Of a DNA stretch of 64,000 nt, positions 27,646 to 57,857 are shown piece after piece. The notes under the pieces were generated by a model that was given only the letters and a program-made list of their open reading frames with translations, did not search any database and was not told the origin of the DNA. The position numbers and the translations under genes were made by a program. Position 1 is the first letter of the stretch; each line of letters begins with the position of its first letter. The DNA comes from Planctomycetota bacterium. GTDB lineage: Bacteria; Planctomycetota; UBA1135; GCA-002748355. The DNA lies in assembly GCA_020638795.1 (NCBI GenBank), contig JACKHW010000005.1, forward strand, positions 218,023-282,022. The letters are read 5' to 3'.

Positions 27646-27732
27646 GCGAGAGTGGCGGAATCGGCAGACGCGGCGGACTTAAAATCCGCTCCCGCTATCG
27701 GGGTCCGGGTTCGAGTCCCGGCTCTCGCACCA
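27646..27732 (+). tRNA. tRNA-Leu (anticodon UAA)
   Basis: Acceptor stem is GCGAGAG/CTCTCGC. Anticodon arm is GCGGA-cuUAAaa-TCCGC. There is a long variable arm (CCCGctatCGGG) and a T-arm CCGGGttcgagtCCCGG. Discriminator A and an encoded CCA end at 27732. Confidence 0.9.
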
Positions 27733-46986: not shown

Positions 46987-48522
46987 TCAGGCTTGCGGCG
47001 CGAAGCCGACCACCTGCGCCGCGTCGGCAGAGTTCGTCATTTCCTGCACTTCGAAGTCGGACCCGTCGAAGCTCATGAGTCGTCCCTCGCCTTCTTCGCG
47101 AGTCTCGACGTGGACTGGGCGGGACCAGAGTTCGAAGAGCGAGCGCATCGTCAGTTTGGCTTGCTCGAACTGCAGATCGACTCCGTTCCAGTCGTGGAAC
47201 AGGTACAGCTCACCGCGATTCCGATAGTTGGCGTCGACGATCGCGATGCGCGGTTGACCGAAGTTGGTCAGGGACCAGAGCAATTGCTGCTTCACCTTCG
47301 TCCAATCGCGATCGAGGATCTCGTACTGTCCGGTGCGTTGGTTGAAACCATAGACGTAGAGGTTCTGCGCCTCGGCAAATTCCTCACAAAGGAAGTTGTC
47401 GATGAACGTCACGTCGTTGTGATCGCGGCGCACCTCGAAGATCTTCTCTCGACCGAGCCCCAGCCCGGCGTCGAAGCTACGACGCTCGTCGATGTCGAGG
47501 TTCTGCCACGCGAGACCGAACTTACCGCGATTCCAGCGATCCTCGATGTCGCGGAAGAGTTCGACGCCGAGCTTGTAAGGATTCACGCGACCAGGCTGTG
47601 TCGCGAGCGTGCCCGAGTGGTGATCGCAGTAAGTGACGATCTCCGAAGGCTCGACGAGGTGCTCGCACATGAGCTTGCTGTGCCAGTACACGGCCCAACC
47701 CTCGTTCATGATCTTCGTCATCATTTGGGGGACGAAGTAGTACGACTCGTCGCGCAACATCGCGATCACGTCCTGCTGCCAACGCTCGAGCGGTGCGAAC
47801 TGTTGGAGGAAGAGCAGGACGTCCCGCGTTGGCTCGGGTGGGAATCGTCGCGCCTGTACGGCCGCTTCTTCGCGCTTCTTTCGCTCCGCCGCGAGGACCT
47901 CGGGCGGATTGATGTAGCGGTCCATGTAATCCTTGGCGCGAATTCGCGGTTCTTCGTACGTCTCCTCCGTCTGTGCTTTCGGTTGAGCACGCCGTTCGAT
48001 GAACGGGCTGTGCGGGTCGATGAGATTGTCGAGCGCGTGCACACGATCGATGAAGTCCTCGACGACTCCGACGCCGTGGCGATCCATGTAGGCACGAATG
48101 CGCGTACCATGGTTCGCCATCACGTCCATCATTTTCCGGTTGGTCTTGCTGAACCAATAGTTGTTCTTGAAGAAGTCACAATGGCCATAGACGTGCGCCA
48201 TCACGAGCTTCTGGTCCGTCGTGCTGTTCGCGCGCATCAAGTACGCGTAGCACGGGTCGTTGTTGATGACGAGCTCGTAGATCTTGGACAACCCGTACGT
48301 GTAGCTCTTGCTGAGCTGCTCGTAGTCCATGCCGAAACGCCAGTGTGGGTAGCGTGTCGGGAAGCCACCGTAAGCGGCGATCATGTTCATCTCGTCGTGA
48401 TCGACCATCTCGAACACGGTTTCGTACGTGTCGAGGCCATACCCCTTGGCGAGCTCTTTGATCTCCGCGTGATAGCGTTGGAGCTCGGGGGGAAGCGACG
48501 TATTGGTGGACGGAAGCATCAT
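46987..48522 (-). CDS. spoVR: SpoVR family protein
   Basis: 511 aa. Conserved SpoVR blocks are [32 protein letters not shown] and [12 protein letters not shown]. Its start overlaps the upstream stop (ATGA). Confidence 0.92.
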
Positions 48523-49622
48523 CGCCCCTTCTGCAAGAACGTCTGGATCGAAGCGAGGATTCCTTCGCGATCGAGAATGTCCGACGTGACGAGTTTCGGT
48601 TCGTCGGGCAACGCGGCGTCGAGGTCTTTCTTGAACTGCCCCGAGCCATACGCGCTCTTGACCTGACCGTAGCTGAACTGATTGCTCGCGGGCAGAATCT
48701 CGTTCGACAGCAACTGCACGCAGTGCTCGGTGTCGCGCGTCGACCAGTTGTCACCGTCGCTGAAGTGGAACGGGTAGATGTTCCACTCCTCGGGCGGATA
48801 GCGATCGCGAATCACGCGCAAGCAGAGTTCGTATGCAGAGCTGATCTTCGTTCCGCCGGATTCACGCAAGTGGAAGAACGTGTGCTGATCGACGACGTGC
48901 GCGACCGCATCGTGAACGATGTACACGACCTCGAGATTGTCGTATTGGCTGCGCAACCACGTATCGAGCCAGAACGCTTCGATGCGCACGATCTCCTTTT
49001 GTTCGCGCCCCATCGAACCGCTGACGTCCATCATGTAGACGATCACGGCATTGGCCTGCGGTTTCGTGATCTCCTTGCGCGACTTGTACCGGCGATCGTT
49101 CTTGATCGGGATGATCGCGGGATTGTCGGGATCGTAGAGACCGGCTGCGATCTGCCGCTTGAGAGCTTCGGTATAGGTACGCTTGAAGTGGCGCAGACTC
49201 TCCGGTCCGACGCGACGGATCCCGCGCCACGAACCACCTTCGGTCTCGAGTTGCTTGCTGCCCTTGGGCTCGATGCGCGGCAAGCCGAGTTCTTCGCCGA
49301 GGATCTGTGCGAGTTCGTCGAGGCCGACTTCGACTTCGATCGAGTGCTTGCCCTCGTCCTCGCCTGCTTGTCCCGGGCCCGGCTGCTGTTCGCCATCCAC
49401 CGCGTCGCCAGGCTCGCCTTCGCCCTGACCGACGCCACCTTTCTCGTTCTTGCCGAACCGGAAGCGTGGCAGGTTGATCTGCGGAATCGGGATCGACACG
49501 TAGCGCCCGCCCTGCTTGCCGATCATCTCACCGGAGCTGACGAACCGCTTGAGATCACGCTTGATTCGACCCCTCACGATCTCGCGGAAGCGCGTGTGGT
49601 CTCTGTCGATCTTGCGAACCAT
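48519..49622 (-). CDS. yeaH: DUF444 (YeaH/YhbH, UPF0229) family protein
   Basis: 367 aa. The N-terminus is [23 protein letters not shown]. The vWA-like block is [13 protein letters not shown]. Confidence 0.9.
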
Positions 49623-50495: not shown

Positions 50496-51392
50496 GTGGA
50501 GAACATGCGGAACAGAGCCTCGATCTTCACCCTGATCGCACTCGTCGCCCTGAGCATCATCGGCGCCACGACGCCGGTGAACGCACAGAGCAAAGACGAT
50601 CCAAAAATGCCCGTCGAACGCAAAGTCGTCACCGACGAGGCGGGTTTGCAGCAGTGGGCGCCATTCGAAGGTGCTCCTTGCCCGATGTGTCGAACGAACA
50701 AGGTCATCGACTGCCCAACGTGCAAGGACGCCGAGCACGCCGAGTCGTGCCTCGAATGCGGGACCAAGAAAGAACCCCGCACCAAGAAGGCGCCATGCCG
50801 CTTGTGCGCCGGGGAGGGCAAGCTCCCGGACATGCTGATCGAGGGTCCATGCATCGCCTGCACGGGCGCAGGCGTCTTCCCGTGTGTCGGTTGCGGAGGC
50901 GAGACGAGCTATCCGGTCGAAGGTGGCGGCAAGAAGCGACAGAAATGCGCCGTCTGCCGCGGTGAGGGCAGCATTCGCTGCTCGGTCTGCAAAGGCAAGC
51001 GTCGGTGCGAGCCCATCAGCCCCAAGAAAGGAATCGCGGAGGCGGCCGTGAAAGACCTCGAAGCGGCCGCGAAGACGGTCGAGGGGGTCCTCGTGGAGCT
51101 GCGCGCGTGCGAGTTCGCAGGCATCAAGGAACGTGACGAACTCAAGAAGTATCAGGCCATCCTCAAGGACCTCGCGAAGATCTCGAAGCCGACGAAGGTG
51201 GCCTCGTCGATGGTCAAGGACTTGATCGGACTCGCGAGCCGCATGGACCAGTACACGAACAAGGAACGGCGCAAGTCCGACACCTTCGACATGTTCCGGC
51301 GCTACAACGTCTACTGGCTCGAAGGGCAGGCCGAACTCCTGAAGCTCGCCATCGAACGCGCGAAGCACAACGAGAACGCGGAAAAGAAGTGA
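50496..51392 (+). CDS. Secreted protein with DnaJ-type CxxCxGxG zinc-finger repeats
   Basis: Signal peptide is ...LIALVALSIIGATTPVNA|QSK. Repeats are CRLCAGEG, CIACTGAG, CVGCGGET and CAVCRGEG, plus extra CxxC pairs. The start is GTG 50496 or ATG 50505. Confidence 0.7.
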   Translation: MENMRNRASIFTLIALVALSIIGATTPVNAQSKDDPKMPVERKVVTDEAGLQQWAPFEGAPCPMCRTNKVIDCPTCKDAEHAESCLECGTKKEPRTKKAPCRLCAGEGKLPDMLIEGPCIACTGAGVFPCVGCGGETSYPVEGGGKKRQKCAVCRGEGSIRCSVCKGKRRCEPISPKKGIAEAAVKDLEAAAKTVEGVLVELRACEFAGIKERDELKKYQAILKDLAKISKPTKVASSMVKDLIGLASRMDQYTNKERRKSDTFDMFRRYNVYWLEGQAELLKLAIERAKHNENAEKK

Positions 51393-51447
51393 CGGAAAAG
51401 AAGTGACGGAAAGAAGTGACGGAAAGAAGTGACGGACGAGAAGTGAT
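51380..51447 (+). repeat. Tandem direct repeat, 5 units of 13-14 bp (GGAAA(A)GAAGTGAC x4 plus a degenerate GGACGAGAAGTGAT)
   Basis: Units read directly from the sequence at 51380-51393, 51394-51407, 51408-51420, 51421-51433 and 51434-51447. The repeat spans the stop of the upstream gene and the start of the downstream gene. Confidence 0.95.
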
Positions 51448-54388
51448 TCGACATCCCCTGAAAGGCCGCGGCATCACGACAGTCGCGGCCGTCTTCTTCG
51501 TCGGGGCATCCGCTCCGGTTCTTGCGCAGGATCGCTTCGGCGCCACGATCAACCAGACGCTCGTGCGCGCTCCCTCGCGGATCGATGGATCGCTGACGAA
51601 GACGCGCACGAGCGAAGTCGTCGCTACGGCGCGTCCTGCCATCGTGCGCGTCTACGTCGAGATCACCGAAAAGCGCACCAAGTTCGCGATCGAGCGACCC
51701 AGCTCGGGGGTGATCGTCGATCCTTCGGGGATCGTGCTCACGTTCTGGTCGCTCGTCGCGGAGGGCTACGAAAGCGGCGTTCCGATCAAGGAGCGCGGCG
51801 TCTTCGCGCAGACGAAGGACGGACAGAAGCACGCATTGACCCTGCTCGCGCACGACGAGGCGAGCGACCTCGCGCTCCTCGCCGTGGACGGAGCTACGAC
51901 GGACACGACGTTTCCGTCGCTCGAACTCGCGACGGCGTCCGCCGTGCGACCGGGAGATCGCTGCGTCGTCCTGAGCTACCACGATGGGTCGGAGTTCGCC
52001 GCGTTCGCAGGCGTCCTCTCGCGGCCTCAGGGCAAGACGACGCATCGTGGTCGAAGCATTGGAGCCGACGAGTTCTGGCTCACGGATGCCGCGATCCAGC
52101 TACGTAGTCAGGGCGCGGCCGTACTCGACGGGCTCGGCCGAGTCGTGGGTCTCGCATCGGCCGAGCACGTGCGCCGAGAAGTCCGAGAACCGACGCTCGA
52201 GGACGTCCTCGCTCCGTCGTTCGGAATCGTGCTTCCCGTCGACCCTGTGCGCACCCTGTTTCGCGATGCACTCCGTGCGCGCGCGCCGTCGAACAAGTCG
52301 CTCCTCGCGAATGCTGACGGCAGCGCGAAGGACACGCGTCTGCCGCCCGGTCATCGAACGGTCCTCGAACAGTGCGCGGAGTCGGTCGTCGGTGTGGTCT
52401 CCGGTCGAGAAGCCGACACACCTCTGGACGTACTCGATCCCGGCGCGACCGCACGACGCGACGGCGCAGGCTCGGGAGTCGTGGTCACCACGGGTGGGCT
52501 CGTCCTTACGAACCTCCATTTGCTCGCCGGTCGTACCGCGGCGCGCGTGCTGCTGAGCGACGGCAAGTCGCTTCCGGCCCGCCTCGTGGACAGCAAAGCA
52601 GGGCTCAACATCGCACTGCTCGAGGTCGAACTGCCACCCGGTGCGAAGCTCCGGCCGATCGCGATCGCGTCCGTCGACGAGGCGCTTCCCGGCGAGGTCC
52701 TCATCGCGATCGGTAAGCCCGTCGGGGGCGCCAACCCGACCGCGAGCACCGGCATCCTCTCGGCCATGCGCCGCGGCGGAACCTACCTGCAAGCAGACCC
52801 GAACCTCGGCAACGAGAATGCCGGCGGAGCGCTGGTCGATGGCACCGGTCGACTGCTCGCCATCATCGACGGCGGCGCGATGGACAAGCGCGAGTTGGCG
52901 TTCTTGATGCGGGGGGATCAGGCCAAGGCGCAGTCCAACCTGTCGACCGCAGTCTCGATCGACAACATCAAGAAACGCTTCTCGAAGCTCTCCGACTTGG
53001 CGGTGAAAGGCGCGGATGCGGCACAGCGATCCAAGGCACACACGAGAGTGACACACGTCATCGACAAGACGGCAAAAGGGCTGCTCAACATCTACGTCAG
53101 CGTCACGGAGCGGCCGGCGAACCTCGATGACAACCCGTTCGCGGTCACGGATGCCAAGCCTCAGATACAAAGCCTCGGCTCGGGTGTCGTGATCGATGAC
53201 TCGGGGCTCGCGATCACCAACTGGCACGTCGTCGACGACGCGACGAATGCCGACGGTTCGGCGATCCTCGACCATGTCGTGCATGCACGACTTCGCGACG
53301 GGACCTTGTGCGAAGTCGAAGTGCTGAGCATTTCGCGCGAAGACGACTTGGCATTGCTGCGGTTGACGGTTCCGGAAGGCCAAGCGATCGAAGCCGTCGA
53401 GTTCGGCGATTCGGACACGCTCGCGATCGGCGAGACGGTCGTCGCGATCGGCAATCCCGAGGGCATGGCCAACACCGCGACCTGCGGCGTCGTGAGCTGC
53501 AAGGATCGCGGCATCAACATCAAACACCGATGGGCCAAGTACGAGGGCCTCATCGAGACGGATGCCGCGATCAACGGCGGCAACAGCGGCGGCGCGCTTC
53601 TCGACCTCGATGGCCGATTGGTCGGGATCAACAGCGCAGGCGGAAGCGGACTCGAAGTCACGGGCTTCGCGATTCCGGTCAACCACGTTCGCTCCAAGTT
53701 GCTCAACCTACTCCTGTCGCCGGAGAAGTTGCGCAGCGCGCACACGGGGCTACGCGCCACGGATTCGCTCGATGCGTCCGCTGCAGTCGAAGTGCGCTCG
53801 ATCGACCCCGACACACCTGCTGCTCGCGCAGGCATCCAGGCCGGCGATCGGATCACCGCCATCGATGGTCACCCACTGAGGTGGTCGATCGATTTGACGA
53901 TGCGCATGCTCGAGAAGAAGGGCGGCGAAATCGCACGCCTCGAACTTTGGCGCGGGGAAGAAACGCTCTCGAAAGAAGTCGCGTGCTACGCGGCGGACGT
54001 CTGGGCCTGCCAACGACAGCTCGGCACCTGGCTCGAACGCATCCCGACGTCCGGTCAACTCGATACGGTGCATCGTGCGATCACGGCACTGACGCGGCGC
54101 TATACGAACGACCCGGCTGCAACACCGACCAGCTTGCCCGACTTCGTCGTGCGTGTCGTCGACGCCTTCGGTGAGGATGCCGTTCTGAAGAAGGGCGACC
54201 TCGTCCTCGCCGCGGAGTTCGTCGGCGAACGACGCGAGGGCAAGCTCGATCGCTTCGAATCCGTGCGCGAAATCCAGACCTGTATCGACACGCACAGCAC
54301 CTACGAAGGCACGAAGATGACCTTCTGGATCTACCGTGACGACAAGGTCCACGTGCTGAACGTGCCCGTCAAGCGACTCTTCCTTTGA
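51443..54388 (+). CDS. Secreted protein with three tandem trypsin-fold (HtrA-like) domains and PDZ domains; only the third protease domain keeps the catalytic triad
   Basis: GTG at 51443 gives signal peptide VIRHPLKGRGITTVAAVFFVGASAPVLA|QDR; an in-frame GTG at 51416 is the alternative start. Domain 3 has ITNWHVV, DDLALLRL and INGGNSGGALL. The PDZ segment is VRSIDPDTPAARAGIQAGDRI. Confidence 0.8.
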   Translation: MIRHPLKGRGITTVAAVFFVGASAPVLAQDRFGATINQTLVRAPSRIDGSLTKTRTSEVVATARPAIVRVYVEITEKRTKFAIERPSSGVIVDPSGIVLTFWSLVAEGYESGVPIKERGVFAQTKDGQKHALTLLAHDEASDLALLAVDGATTDTTFPSLELATASAVRPGDRCVVLSYHDGSEFAAFAGVLSRPQGKTTHRGRSIGADEFWLTDAAIQLRSQGAAVLDGLGRVVGLASAEHVRREVREPTLEDVLAPSFGIVLPVDPVRTLFRDALRARAPSNKSLLANADGSAKDTRLPPGHRTVLEQCAESVVGVVSGREADTPLDVLDPGATARRDGAGSGVVVTTGGLVLTNLHLLAGRTAARVLLSDGKSLPARLVDSKAGLNIALLEVELPPGAKLRPIAIASVDEALPGEVLIAIGKPVGGANPTASTGILSAMRRGGTYLQADPNLGNENAGGALVDGTGRLLAIIDGGAMDKRELAFLMRGDQAKAQSNLSTAVSIDNIKKRFSKLSDLAVKGADAAQRSKAHTRVTHVIDKTAKGLLNIYVSVTERPANLDDNPFAVTDAKPQIQSLGSGVVIDDSGLAITNWHVVDDATNADGSAILDHVVHARLRDGTLCEVEVLSISREDDLALLRLTVPEGQAIEAVEFGDSDTLAIGETVVAIGNPEGMANTATCGVVSCKDRGINIKHRWAKYEGLIETDAAINGGNSGGALLDLDGRLVGINSAGGSGLEVTGFAIPVNHVRSKLLNLLLSPEKLRSAHTGLRATDSLDASAAVEVRSIDPDTPAARAGIQAGDRITAIDGHPLRWSIDLTMRMLEKKGGEIARLELWRGEETLSKEVACYAADVWACQRQLGTWLERIPTSGQLDTVHRAITALTRRYTNDPAATPTSLPDFVVRVVDAFGEDAVLKKGDLVLAAEFVGERREGKLDRFESVREIQTCIDTHSTYEGTKMTFWIYRDDKVHVLNVPVKRLFL

Positions 54389-55653
54389 GCGCGCAACCCG
54401 GAGCCTCGGCCGGATTCGTCAGCCATCTCGAGTGTGGCTGGACTGGTGAGCGCCACGACAAGGGCGTCGTTCACGGATTGTCGAATGCCGGCAAACCGCT
54501 CCTCGTACGCTACGACCTCGAAGCACTCGGTCGAGCACTCACGCAAGAGGCACTGCGCTCGAGACCATTCGATGGCCGTGATCGTGGATTCTGGCGCTAC
54601 CGAGAGTTCTTGCCGGTCGAGAACACGCAACACGAACTGCATCTCGGGGAAGTCGTCACACCGCTGATCGACGTCTCGCCACCCGGCGCGCCAGCCGGCA
54701 CCCTGTGGATCAAGGACGAGGGCCGACTCCCCACCGCGTCGTTCAAATCGCGAGGACTCGCACTCGCCGTCGCGATGGCCAAACAACTCGGCGCCCACCA
54801 TCTCGCGATGCCGACCAACGGCAACGCCGGTGCTGCGCTCGCAGCCTATGCGCGTCGAGCCGGGCTCGCCGCAACGGTGCTCTGTCCTGCGGACACGCCC
54901 GAGATCAACGTTCGTGAAATCGCGGCTCTCGGAGCCGACGTCTTTCGCGTCGACGGCCTGATCGACGAGTGCGGTGCGATCGTTCGCCGAGTGTGCGCGG
55001 AACAAAGGTGGTTCGACGTCTCGACGCTCAAGGAGCCCTACCGTATCGAAGGCAAGAAGACGATGGGGCTCGAGTTGTGGGAGCAAACCGGTGGCGCGCT
55101 TCCGGACGTCATCCTCTACCCGACCGGCGGCGGAACGGGCTTGATCGGGATGTGGAAGGCATTCGACGAACTCGAACGTCTCGGCTGGTTGCACGGCAAG
55201 AAGCCCCGCATGGTCGCGGTTCAGGCTTCGGGCTGTGCGCCGATCGTCAACGCGTTCGAAGAAGGCACCCGCTGCGCGACCCGCGTCCAGAACGCAACGA
55301 CCGTTGCCGCCGGGATCCGCGTGCCGGCGGCGATCGGCGACTTCCTCATCCTCGACGCCGTGCGCGAGAGCGGTGGCTTTGCCATCGCGGTCGATGATGA
55401 CCACATTCTGCAGTGCCGTGAACGCATCGCGCTGCAATCGGGAAATCTGCTCTGCCCCGAAGGCGCCGCCACGATCGCGGCCTACGAGGCCGCGCTGCAG
55501 GACGGCAGAATCGACGAACGCGAGGTCTGTGTCGCATTCAACTGCGCCAGCGGCATCAAGTACGAGCTCCCGGCCGTGACTCGCCACCTCGACAAGGAGC
55601 AGTCCTTGGCAAAGGGCCGTCTCGTCGTGGACATCGATCGATCGATTCGGTAG
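54385..55653 (+). CDS. thrC: Threonine synthase-like PLP-dependent enzyme
   Basis: 422 aa. The PLP-lysine block is PTASFKSRGLALAV. Fold-type II blocks are MPTNGNAGAALAAYA and YPTGGGTGLIGMWKAF. The start is uncertain: TTG at 54385 overlaps the upstream TGA. Confidence 0.8.
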   Translation: MSAQPGASAGFVSHLECGWTGERHDKGVVHGLSNAGKPLLVRYDLEALGRALTQEALRSRPFDGRDRGFWRYREFLPVENTQHELHLGEVVTPLIDVSPPGAPAGTLWIKDEGRLPTASFKSRGLALAVAMAKQLGAHHLAMPTNGNAGAALAAYARRAGLAATVLCPADTPEINVREIAALGADVFRVDGLIDECGAIVRRVCAEQRWFDVSTLKEPYRIEGKKTMGLELWEQTGGALPDVILYPTGGGTGLIGMWKAFDELERLGWLHGKKPRMVAVQASGCAPIVNAFEEGTRCATRVQNATTVAAGIRVPAAIGDFLILDAVRESGGFAIAVDDDHILQCRERIALQSGNLLCPEGAATIAAYEAALQDGRIDEREVCVAFNCASGIKYELPAVTRHLDKEQSLAKGRLVVDIDRSIR

Positions 55654-55662
55654 ACCACGAGA

Positions 55663-56130
55663 GTGAAGCAAGGGCCGCTCGATCTGTCACAGCACTTCCT
55701 CGAGGAGGGCGTCGTCGATCTGTCCTCGAGCGAAAAGCAGACGGCGCTCGAAGAACTCTGCGCCATTACGTCGAAACACGCGCACGTGCGGGACCCCAAG
55801 GCGTTTTGCAAGGCGATCTTCGAGCGCGAGAAGCTGGTCTCGACGGGCATCGGTCTCGGCGTCGCCATCCCGCACGTCAAGATCCCGAGCGTGACCGACT
55901 ACGTGATCACGGTCGGCCGGTGCGACGCCGGCATCGACTTCGATGCGATCGACGGCCAACCGGTTCGGCTCGTCTTCATGATCGCGGCGTCGGAGAAGCA
56001 GACCGCGGAGTTCGTTCGCGTGCTCGCATCGATCGTCAAACTCGTCAAGCAAAACGACGTTCGCTCGCGCCTGCTCGAAGCTTCGATGCCCGGTGAATTC
56101 TGTTCGATCCTCCGCGAAGCAAGTCGATGA
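55663..56130 (+). CDS. PTS EIIA type-2 (PtsN/EIIA-Ntr-like) domain protein
   Basis: 155 aa with a GTG start. The phospho-His loop is STGIGLGVAIPHVK. Typical flanks are EELCAITSKH... and RLVFMIAAS. Confidence 0.85.
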   Translation: MKQGPLDLSQHFLEEGVVDLSSSEKQTALEELCAITSKHAHVRDPKAFCKAIFEREKLVSTGIGLGVAIPHVKIPSVTDYVITVGRCDAGIDFDAIDGQPVRLVFMIAASEKQTAEFVRVLASIVKLVKQNDVRSRLLEASMPGEFCSILREASR

Positions 56131-57857
56131 ACGCGAGGACTCTCGTCGATCACATTCGCTCGTCGGCAGCCACGGGAAGGCTCCTGATCCTGTGCGTGAT
56201 CATCGGCGCGATCGCAGGCGTCTTCTGCGTTGCGTTCTCGTGGATGCTCGAGACGGTGCAGTACTACCTCCTCGACGGGTTGGCCCACCACGAGTCCGAG
56301 CACCCGGTGTGGATCTGGCTCCTCGTGCTGCCTGCTTTCGGCGGTCTCGTCAGTGGTGTCCTCACGACGAAATACGCGCCGGAAGCAGCCGGTCCGGGCA
56401 CGGACGCTGCCGTCGACGCCTACCACCATCACGGTGGACGCGTGCGCACGCGCGTGCCGTTCATCAAGATGATCACAGCCGCGGTCACGCTGGGCACCGG
56501 TGGTTCGGCCGGACGCGAGGGCCCGTTGACCCAGATCGGTGGCGGGATCGGATCGTTCGTCGCGACAGGACTGCGACTCTCCAATCAAGAGCGCCGCATC
56601 CTGATGGCTGCAGGGATGGCTGCCGGTGTCGGCGCGATGTTCCACGCGCCGCTCGCCGGAGCGTTGTTCGCGGCGGAGATCCTCTATCGCGAGATGGACC
56701 TGGAGCACGAGGTGATCGTGCCATCGTTCATCGCCTCGATCATCGCGTACAGCATCTACGCGCAGAAGGCGGGTTGGGAGCCGGTCTACGCGGCGCCAAA
56801 CTTCCACTTCCGCAATGCGCTGCAGTTGCTGGCCTACGCGGCGCTCGCGATCGTGCTGGCGGGCAGTGCAACGATCTTCACGCGGCTCTGGCGCATCGTG
56901 CGCGACGCGTTCGTGCGTTTGCCCGTCCCCACGGCACTCAAGCCGGCCATCGGCGGACTGCTCGCCGGGTCGATCGGTGTCTTCGTGCCCGACGCGCTCG
57001 GTACCGGGCATCATCTCCTCGACGGGGCCTTCGCGAGTTCGTTCTCGATCGGCTTCTTGATCCTGCTCGTCACGGCGAAGATGGTCACGACTTCGCTCAC
57101 GATCGGAAGCGGCGCTTCGGGTGGCAAACTCGGCCCCTCGCTAGTACTCGGTGGATCGCTCGGCAGCATCGTCGGTCTCGTGGTGCAAGACCTCTTCCCG
57201 TCACTCGAGATCGACGCCGGCGCGTTCGTCGTCGTCGGCATGGCGGGGTTCTTCGCAGCCGCGGCCAACACTCCCATCTCGACGATCATCATGGTCAGCG
57301 AGTTGACGGGGAACTACCAACTCCTCGTGCCCTCGATGCTCGTCTGCGTGCTCGCGTACTTGTTCGTGTCTCGGCACGGCATCTACGACGCACAGCTGGT
57401 TTCACGACTCGAGGCACCGAGCAAGATGGGCAACATGCTCGGCGCCGTGCTCAAGACGATCGCGATTCGTGACGCGGCGAATCACACGCGTGACTTGATC
57501 GTCGTCCCCGAAGCGATGAGTCTGCGACAGATCATCGACCTCTACACGTCGAGCGATCAGCTCGCGTTTCCGATGGTCGACCCGGACGGCAAGCTCACGG
57601 GCATGATCGAAGGCCGCGACATCCGGCGCGCGATCGCCGAAGAAGGCGTCGCCGACCTCGTGGTCGCACGCGATCTCGCGCGGCCCCACGAAGTCATCGA
57701 CATCGAGTCGACCCTTCTCGACGCGGTCCAACGCATGACGCTGACCGGGCTCGAGGACTTGATCCTCGTCGAAGCCGAGGACCCGACGCGTCCGGTCGGC
57801 GTCCTCGAACACCAAGAGGTTCTCCACGCCTACGACCGCAAGCTGATGGAGAAGTGA
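56127..57857 (+). CDS. ClC family voltage-gated chloride channel/antiporter with C-terminal CBS pair
   Basis: 576 aa. Selectivity-filter blocks are GSAGREGP, GAMFHAPLAG and GSGASGGKLGPSL. CBS-like repeats lie at the C-terminus. Its ATG overlaps the upstream TGA (ATGA). Confidence 0.92.
   Translation: MNARTLVDHIRSSAATGRLLILCVIIGAIAGVFCVAFSWMLETVQYYLLDGLAHHESEHPVWIWLLVLPAFGGLVSGVLTTKYAPEAAGPGTDAAVDAYHHHGGRVRTRVPFIKMITAAVTLGTGGSAGREGPLTQIGGGIGSFVATGLRLSNQERRILMAAGMAAGVGAMFHAPLAGALFAAEILYREMDLEHEVIVPSFIASIIAYSIYAQKAGWEPVYAAPNFHFRNALQLLAYAALAIVLAGSATIFTRLWRIVRDAFVRLPVPTALKPAIGGLLAGSIGVFVPDALGTGHHLLDGAFASSFSIGFLILLVTAKMVTTSLTIGSGASGGKLGPSLVLGGSLGSIVGLVVQDLFPSLEIDAGAFVVVGMAGFFAAAANTPISTIIMVSELTGNYQLLVPSMLVCVLAYLFVSRHGIYDAQLVSRLEAPSKMGNMLGAVLKTIAIRDAANHTRDLIVVPEAMSLRQIIDLYTSSDQLAFPMVDPDGKLTGMIEGRDIRRAIAEEGVADLVVARDLARPHEVIDIESTLLDAVQRMTLTGLEDLILVEAEDPTRPVGVLEHQEVLHAYDRKLMEK

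Follow-up and report, generated by a model that had tools for sequence, protein, structure and literature searches.

A short tandem repeat derived from a stop-start junction forms a chain of overlapping mini-ORFs between two planctomycete genes

In a 64-kb window (64,000 nucleotides) of a Planctomycetota bacterium assembly (GCA_020638795.1, contig JACKHW010000005.1, positions 218,023 to 282,022), two co-directional genes, one for a secreted cysteine-rich protein and the other for a secreted protease, are joined by a short tandem array (Table 1). A first-pass annotation, made from the letters of the sequence, had described five units of 14, 14, 13, 13 and 14 bp at this junction, and direct reading of the sequence confirms this arrangement. 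The units are, in order, CGGAAAAGAAGTGA / CGGAAAAGAAGTGA / CGGAAAGAAGTGA / CGGAAAGAAGTGA / CGGACGAGAAGTGA, followed by TTCGACATCCCC. The consensus is CGGAAAAGAAGTGA, and the 13- and 14-bp units differ solely by one A in a homopolymer run. The upstream protein ends in ...A-E-K-K-TGA, the last 14 nt of its gene are the first unit of the array (…GAA AAG AAG TGA), and its stop codon, TGA 51390-51392, lies within a GTGA, as the annotation had stated. The repeat unit is thus the 3′ end of the upstream gene together with the stop-start overlap with which the protease begins.

Tandem Repeats Finder (TRF) reports the array with a period of 13, 5.0 copies, 92% matches and a score of 108, the highest among the 50 TRF rows for the window, making it the strongest tandem repeat there. 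The units lie head to tail and are nearly identical, as in a variable-number tandem repeat (VNTR). The 12-mer core occurs four times at ≤1 mismatch, versus 0.13 times expected, and none of 100 shuffles matches this. Dispersed copies of the unit were not found beyond chance at ≤3 mismatches in the window, nor in 19 fetched loci outside the orthologous junction. The array is 84% purine and 47% GC (versus 64%), and no other 68-nt stretch of the window is as purine-skewed; the 99.9th percentile is 72%.

The array is also found in two Logan assemblies, of SRR12358675 and SRR12358676, which match the window at 100% identity across 4.47 kb, all five units included. Their contigs pass through the array unbroken, and both 13-bp units are reproduced in these assemblies from separate runs. 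The first-pass annotation had raised the worry of an assembly artefact; because two independent public assemblies match base for base, this worry is refuted. A collapsed or expanded repeat, or homopolymer errors giving rise to the 13-bp units, could be suspected from the single A that separates the unit lengths, which is typical of long-read errors, but the agreement of separate runs and the presence of a related three-unit array in a separately assembled metagenome-assembled genome (MAG) leave this explanation with next to no probability. The observation is real and was accurately described. No variation in the array is seen among the three assemblies; as all three represent the same strain, they are silent on hypervariability, and consensus assemblies hide minor variants.

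The closest relatives are Planctomycetota MAGs. In the nearest of these, HKST-UBA76 (locus L001, identical to L008), the upstream protein is 92% identical, nucleotide identity is 89.8% over 7.6 kb, and the junction holds three 14-bp units. This sister array (L001, 2546-2587) reads CGACCAAGAAGTGA / CGGATAAGAAGTGA / CGGATAAGAAGTGA and is followed by the same TTCGACATCCCC, with flanks that align exactly. Two orthologues whose upstream proteins are 65-67% identical (L002 and L009) have one GTGA overlap (…AAG CAG TGA / GTG AGC…). As identity of the upstream protein falls, the junction reads TAA, 7 nt, ATG (L003, 56%), TAG, 6 nt, ATG (L004, 54-57%) and TAG, 2 nt, GTG (L005-L007, 36%), and at 31-32% (L011, L012 and L017) the spacers are longer and the repeat is absent. 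Beyond the sister species, no orthologue was found to contain the repeat, including the distant ones recovered in genome and metagenome scans.

Close relatives therefore differ in unit number, with five units in the window and three in L001, and one or none in the rest, as expected for a VNTR. The first-pass annotation had proposed inspecting related strains for such variation, and it is present between the window and this ~90%-identical sister MAG. The annotation had also listed orthologues that keep both genes without the repeat as evidence that would count against its reading, and this is the situation in all except the closest orthologue. Unit variants are species-specific (A/AAA/CG versus T), and adjacent units are identical within a genome: the first unit equals the second and the third equals the fourth in the window, and the second equals the third in L001. 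Since neighboring units are identical in each genome, duplication or homogenization must be younger than the species split. The eight units of both species vary at unit positions 3-6 only; CG and AGAAGTGA are unchanged in 8/8. The species-specific variants point to slipped-strand turnover, probably through recurrent slippage. Judging from these comparisons, the junction was ancestrally single and tight, and the array was born in the common ancestor of the two species and changed later.

Because the units carry both a GTG and a TGA, the array contains a chain of overlapping mini-open reading frames (mini-ORFs). As the first-pass annotation had proposed, GTG 51389, 51403 and 51429 open reading frames for VTEKK, VTERSDGKK and VTDEK, and the TGA of each overlaps the next GTG. 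The GTGA overlaps lie at 51389-51392, 51403-51406, 51429-51432 and 51443-51446, and each link of the chain therefore has the stop- and start-sharing NTGA form of a co-directional gene pair. The sister species contains two mini-ORFs (VTDKK twice) in the same kind of chain. TGA codons at 51390, 51404, 51417, 51430 and 51444 shut all three frames. Since TGA closes every frame, we could rule out programmed frameshifting, readthrough or a fusion of the two proteins; direct reading of the array also revealed no X-XXY-YYZ slippery heptamer in the upstream frame.

The annotation was likewise correct to place both GTG 51443 and GTG 51416 in the frame of the protease. GTG 51443 is likely to be the real start, since it gives a signal peptide equal in length to those of the orthologues (MIRHPLF.., MPAIRRF.., MPVIRPW..), since gene calling in the NCBI and Logan records settled on the equivalent position and since the sister species has no in-frame upstream GTG. 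GTG 51416 is probably not the main protease start. Read from GTG 51443, the protease has 981 amino acids plus a stop, rather than the 982 first given, and 50 nt separate the upstream stop from this start.

Table 1. Features at and around the array, in window coordinates
Feature	Position	Strand	Description
Upstream gene	50505..51392	+	295-aa secreted Cys-rich protein, signal peptide, many CxxC; from the ORF list; alternative GTG start at 50496
Tandem array	51379..51446	+	Units 51379-51392 (14 bp), 51393-51406 (14 bp), 51407-51419 (13 bp), 51420-51432 (13 bp) and 51433-51446 (14 bp)
Mini-ORF 1	51389..51406	+	GTG...TGA, V-T-E-K-K; GTG overlaps the TGA of the upstream gene (-4 junction)
Mini-ORF 2	51403..51432	+	V-T-E-R-S-D-G-K-K; spans two 13-bp units; GTG overlaps the TGA of mini-ORF 1
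Alternative in-frame GTG in unit 3	51416..51418	+	Would extend the protease N terminus by nine residues (MTERSDGRE)
Mini-ORF 3	51429..51446	+	V-T-D-E-K; TGA overlaps the protease start GTG 51443
Downstream gene	51443..54388	+	981-aa secreted protease, three Trypsin_2 stretches and one PDZ domain (Pfam), HtrA/S1C-like; likely start GTG 51443
TTGA -4 junction	54385..54388	+	Protease stop / TTG start of pyridoxal phosphate (PLP)-dependent enzyme (Pfam PALP)
ATGA -4 junction	56127-56130		Stop of PTS-EIIA-like gene / start of CLC channel gene, in the same co-directional cluster

How does the chain arise? Whenever P = 3n+2, a TGA at p+1+P shares the frame of a GTG at position p, and both 14 and 13+13 qualify. 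Each GTG of the chain is in frame with the TGA of a later unit because the unit length, whether 14 bp or 13+13 bp, is of this form. When we computed all five-unit arrays of 13- and 14-bp units, 8 of the 16 gave a complete chain, 3 an in-frame entry and 5 an out-of-frame entry. We also listed 14 single-unit gains and losses, which give 9 distinct arrays; 13 of the changes preserve the chain or yield an in-frame N-terminal extension, and the sole change that sends relay ribosomes out of frame is the addition of a 13-bp unit at the very end. As any duplicated 3n+2 unit that holds a GTGA yields such a chain, the mini-ORFs are an automatic by-product and give no evidence of design. Nor can the array act as an on/off switch by frameshift. 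The first unit holds the upstream stop and the last unit the protease start, so that both coding sequences fall outside the variable part, and gain or loss of units does not turn either off or on. The slippage-prone copy-number switch suggested in the first-pass annotation is thus supported as to copy number, which varies between species (5, 3, and 1 or 0), and excluded as to a switch of frame.

Would ribosomes use the chain? The mechanism of translational coupling is still debated (PMC12548453). Coupling works best with stop and start at -4 to +3 nt, drops 3-10-fold by about +40 nt and is weak beyond 30-40 nt (PMC12548453); in the system of Huber et al., it is close to nil beyond 30 nt (PMC12548453). 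Post-termination ribosomes take the start codon nearest the stop, and short ORFs are able to deliver ribosomes to a downstream gene (PMC12548453). Given the 50-nt gap between stop and start and the GTG that overlaps the stop, these published rules predict entry into the chain and not a direct reach of GTG 51443. A termination-reinitiation relay, which the annotation had offered as one reading of the locus, is therefore mechanistically reasonable, albeit that the chain follows automatically from the 3n+2 unit.

The explanation that we favor, with a probability of roughly 60%, is that slipped-strand mispairing at a -4 operon junction produced a young, lineage-specific VNTR, which is tolerated and most likely near-neutral. 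The last 14 nt of the upstream gene, with the TGA stop overlapped with the protease GTG, were tandemly duplicated. The upstream gene still ends in the first copy and the protease still begins in the last, leaving both proteins intact, while the internal copies keep their GTG and TGA and so form mini-ORFs of 5-9 codons chained by -4 overlaps. A ribosome finishing the upstream gene could then re-initiate at the nearest start, the overlapping GTG 51389, and be handed along the chain to GTG 51443. It is also possible that ribosomes load directly on the unstructured, purine-rich array. By either route, expression of the protease may stay roughly tied to that of its partner despite the 50-nt separation, and the effect of the array on protease output may be modest and quantitative at most. 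Because this geometry is self-compensating, the duplication would be tolerated and free to drift in copy number (1, then 3 and 5). Thus, the array is probably not a dedicated regulator, but a tolerated product of slippage.

Several points weigh against this explanation. That ribosomes use the relay is something that we infer for an uncultured organism, and because only two species carry the repeat, selection and drift are inseparable. The confinement of differences to unit positions 3-6, with CG and AGAAGTGA invariant, could reflect constraint on starts and stops, and hence function, rather than recency. Selection could likewise lie behind the pairing of the 13-bp units, by which the chain stays complete, although a single 13-bp unit that was duplicated would lead to the same outcome; recent duplication accounts equally well for both patterns. 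Finally, very short ORFs are prone to peptidyl-tRNA drop-off, so that a three-step relay might be inefficient and the array could lower protease output.

If the array does have a function, what could it be? One possibility, which we regard as unlikely, is that it is a translation enhancer or standby site, in which unstructured, purine-rich RNA with weak Shine-Dalgarno (SD)-like GGA/GAG elements recruits free 30S subunits, raises translation of the protease and uncouples it from the upstream gene. The array is more purine-skewed (84%) than any other 68-nt stretch of the window, and its RNA is predicted to be unpaired and without hairpins (folding z-score +0.83); from these features, it could serve as a ribosome landing pad. 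GGA lies 5-6 nt before each GTG. Moreover, many well-supported genes of the window lack any SD, so that weak elements may matter in this genome. However, the purine-rich stretches before each GTG, which the first-pass annotation had noted as possible SD sequences, are weak matches. Using the 18-mers upstream and an assumed canonical anti-SD, the duplex energy comes to -3.5 kcal/mol for GTG 51389 and to -5.0 kcal/mol for the other four GTGs, and 22% of random 18-mers of the window reach -5.0 kcal/mol or better. The purine richness is inherited, since the Glu and Lys codons of the gene end were duplicated. In addition, three of the five GTGs open dead-end mini-ORFs, which would be decoys unless the relay works, and the other orthologues do not share the feature. 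The annotation had also suggested that the GGA repeats form a cluster bound by a CsrA/RsmA-type protein, which would here repress translation of the protease. There are indeed five ACGGA motifs, 13-14 nt apart, that overlap the putative ribosome-binding region, and Planctomycetes are among the phyla proposed to regulate CsrA via FliW, implying that some encode CsrA (PMC4682653). Nonetheless, typical sites present GGA in a hairpin loop, and in the predicted folding none of the five GGAs does so. GGA occurs just twice in the sister species and is missing from the 30 nt that precede the GTGA overlap in L002 and L009, and there is no GGA cluster at the L003-L005 junctions. A tblastn search of the 64-kb window with E. 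coli and B. subtilis CsrA gave only noise, which is uninformative for the whole genome. As duplication of one sequence explains the repetition of GGA, this suggestion is not borne out and we consider it very unlikely.

Other explanations assign a role to the number of repeats or to the DNA itself. If slippage were frequent and variability selected, the array could be a rheostat or contingency locus, in which the number of relay steps or the stop-start distance sets the amount of protease made per upstream protein. The difference between five and three copies in sister species and the identity of neighboring units, a sign of recent turnover, are consistent with such a role; intergenic repeat number tunes expression elsewhere, as for the 7-bp repeat in the 5′ untranslated region (5′-UTR) of H. 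influenzae hmw1A (PMC12721329), and an extra 13-bp unit at the terminus would put relay ribosomes out of frame. Yet three assemblies of the strain share an identical array, with unbroken Logan contigs, and gains and losses of units alter neither protein and nearly always keep delivery to the protease frame. With its five copies of a 13-14-bp unit, the array is also short for a contingency locus, the organism is apparently an environmental planctomycete and the protease has no known link to variable surfaces or host interaction, all of which make this role rather improbable. Similarly improbable is a selected, copy-number-tunable translational coupler, in which serial -4 reinitiation spans the 50 nt, the number of steps sets the ratio of cysteine-rich partner to protease and slippage retunes this ratio by lineage. 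It is also conceivable that the direct repeats act at the DNA level, as transcription factor sites or an internal protease promoter, as in the senX3-regX3 spacer that contains a mycobacterial interspersed repetitive unit (MIRU). Five direct repeats of lower GC (47% versus 64%) do precede the gene, and MIRU spacers can drive independent downstream transcription (PMC4213456). Against this, a promoter scan gave no sigma-70-like match, a period of 13-14 bp does not keep helical phase, only one orthologue has the repeat and its copy number is not conserved, and the array sequence is simply the 3′ end of a gene; we find a DNA-level element highly improbable. A terminator scan found none between the two genes, and Rfam gave nothing at gathering score in or near the array, only chance-level hits (E ≥ 0.14).

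The gene whose end was duplicated encodes a protein with at least seven CxxC motifs. A Pfam search of its 295 amino acids matched no family, and among solved structures its sole similarities, to zinc-finger regions of DnaJ-type proteins, are weak and fall short of significance (E 0.007-0.4). Translated from ATG 50505, the protein matches NCBI entries MCB9882886.1 and MCB9918962.1 exactly and an exact look-up finds it in two Logan contigs, while the version from GTG 50496 finds no match. Homologues are rare: only six were found in 5.8 billion clusters, all adjoining the protease, and in a collection of 15 billion proteins only two sequences are >90% identical, the window's own and that of HKST-UBA76. 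The upstream gene is followed by a triple-trypsin/PDZ protease in 7/7 loci with gene calls, and synteny of the two genes extends to all homologous loci found. The upstream protein may serve the protease as its dedicated partner, chaperone or inhibitor.

Tight junctions are not limited to this gene pair. The protease stop overlaps the start of the next gene in a TTGA, a -4 arrangement that is also found in the gene calls of L001-L003, and an ATGA junction lies further along; NTGA junctions are thus the norm in the gene cluster around the array. The five genes at 50505-57857 look like one operon with tight junctions. Within the region that encodes the protease signal peptide, 21 nt past the start, is a 9-bp GC-rich hairpin (51464-51490, GGCCGCGGC...GUCGCGGCC), two central pairs of which are mismatched in the sister species by direct reading. 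Elsewhere in the window, a second, weaker tandem repeat lies at 59-119 (period 17-20, ~3 copies, TRF score 48-69). On the minus strand (46987-49622), a SpoVR-like gene shares a 4-nt overlap with a DUF444 (YeaH-like) gene; directly upstream of this pair there is no PrkA-like gene, but a gene for a 214-aa protein without a Pfam hit. The sole Rfam match at gathering level in the window is an 84-nt tRNA gene at 27646-27729.

What can be learned from such a junction? If, as is most likely, the array is only a tolerated slippage product, it is an ordinary VNTR and at most a strain marker for this planctomycete clade. The array also shows a simple route by which an operon junction can gain a spacer with neither gene broken. 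A -4 junction duplicated at a 3n+2 period self-compensates, and this is a pattern for which annotation pipelines and studies of intergenic repeats can search. If ribosomes do travel the chain, the array would be a compact natural experiment on nearest-start reinitiation versus scanning and on the loss at each step. Should it prove to be a tunable coupler, it would represent a self-generated, MIRU-like arrangement and offer natural material on which nearest-start reinitiation could be tested against scanning over long distances.

The closest analogue of the array is the MIRU, for example that in the senX3-regX3 spacer of M. tuberculosis, reportedly described by Supply and colleagues in 1997, although the array itself is no MIRU. 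Both consist of tandem units that lie between co-directional operon genes and are oriented with them, both vary in copy number between strains or species and both contain small ORFs joined at -4 to the downstream gene (for MIRUs, PMC12548453). MIRUs are tolerated at start codons, where the internal ORF, coupled at -4, is thought to minimize the effect on expression (PMC12548453). However, the MIRU units of the senX3-regX3 spacer are 53-77 bp (PMC4213456), compared with 13-14 bp here, and while MIRUs are interspersed and apparently mobile (PMC12548453), the array is a local copy of its own junction, with no other in the 64-kb window or the 19 loci. The hosts also differ, being Mycobacterium for the MIRU and Planctomycetota for the array.

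Other known systems share single features. Like the (ATCTTTC)n repeat in the 5′-UTR of H. influenzae hmw1A (PMC12721329), the array is a transcribed tandem repeat before a start codon, in which slippage may vary the number of units. The hmw1A repeat is a long array with demonstrated variation in the population, and forms a long hairpin that involves RNase III, with expression inverse to repeat number (PMC12721329); the present array has five copies, lies between two coding genes and is predicted to be unstructured. In bicistronic-design and upstream-ORF delivery cassettes (PMC12548453), a short ORF that ends at or over a start likewise delivers ribosomes. These cassettes use one leader ORF with its own strong ribosome-binding site, whereas the array has three serial, natural mini-ORFs that would be fed by a full-length gene. 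We found no description in the literature of a natural, serial chain of -4 mini-ORFs derived from a junction, in a search that was not exhaustive. The ordinary -4 NTGA coupled pair (Huber et al., 2019, PMC6728339; PMC12548453) has the same overlap that is seen at every link of the chain, at the L002 and L009 junction and at the TTGA and ATGA junctions of the cluster. What sets the array apart is iteration: where an ordinary pair has a single junction, the array repeats it five times, such that passage would take up to four termination-reinitiation events, three of them via mini-ORFs.

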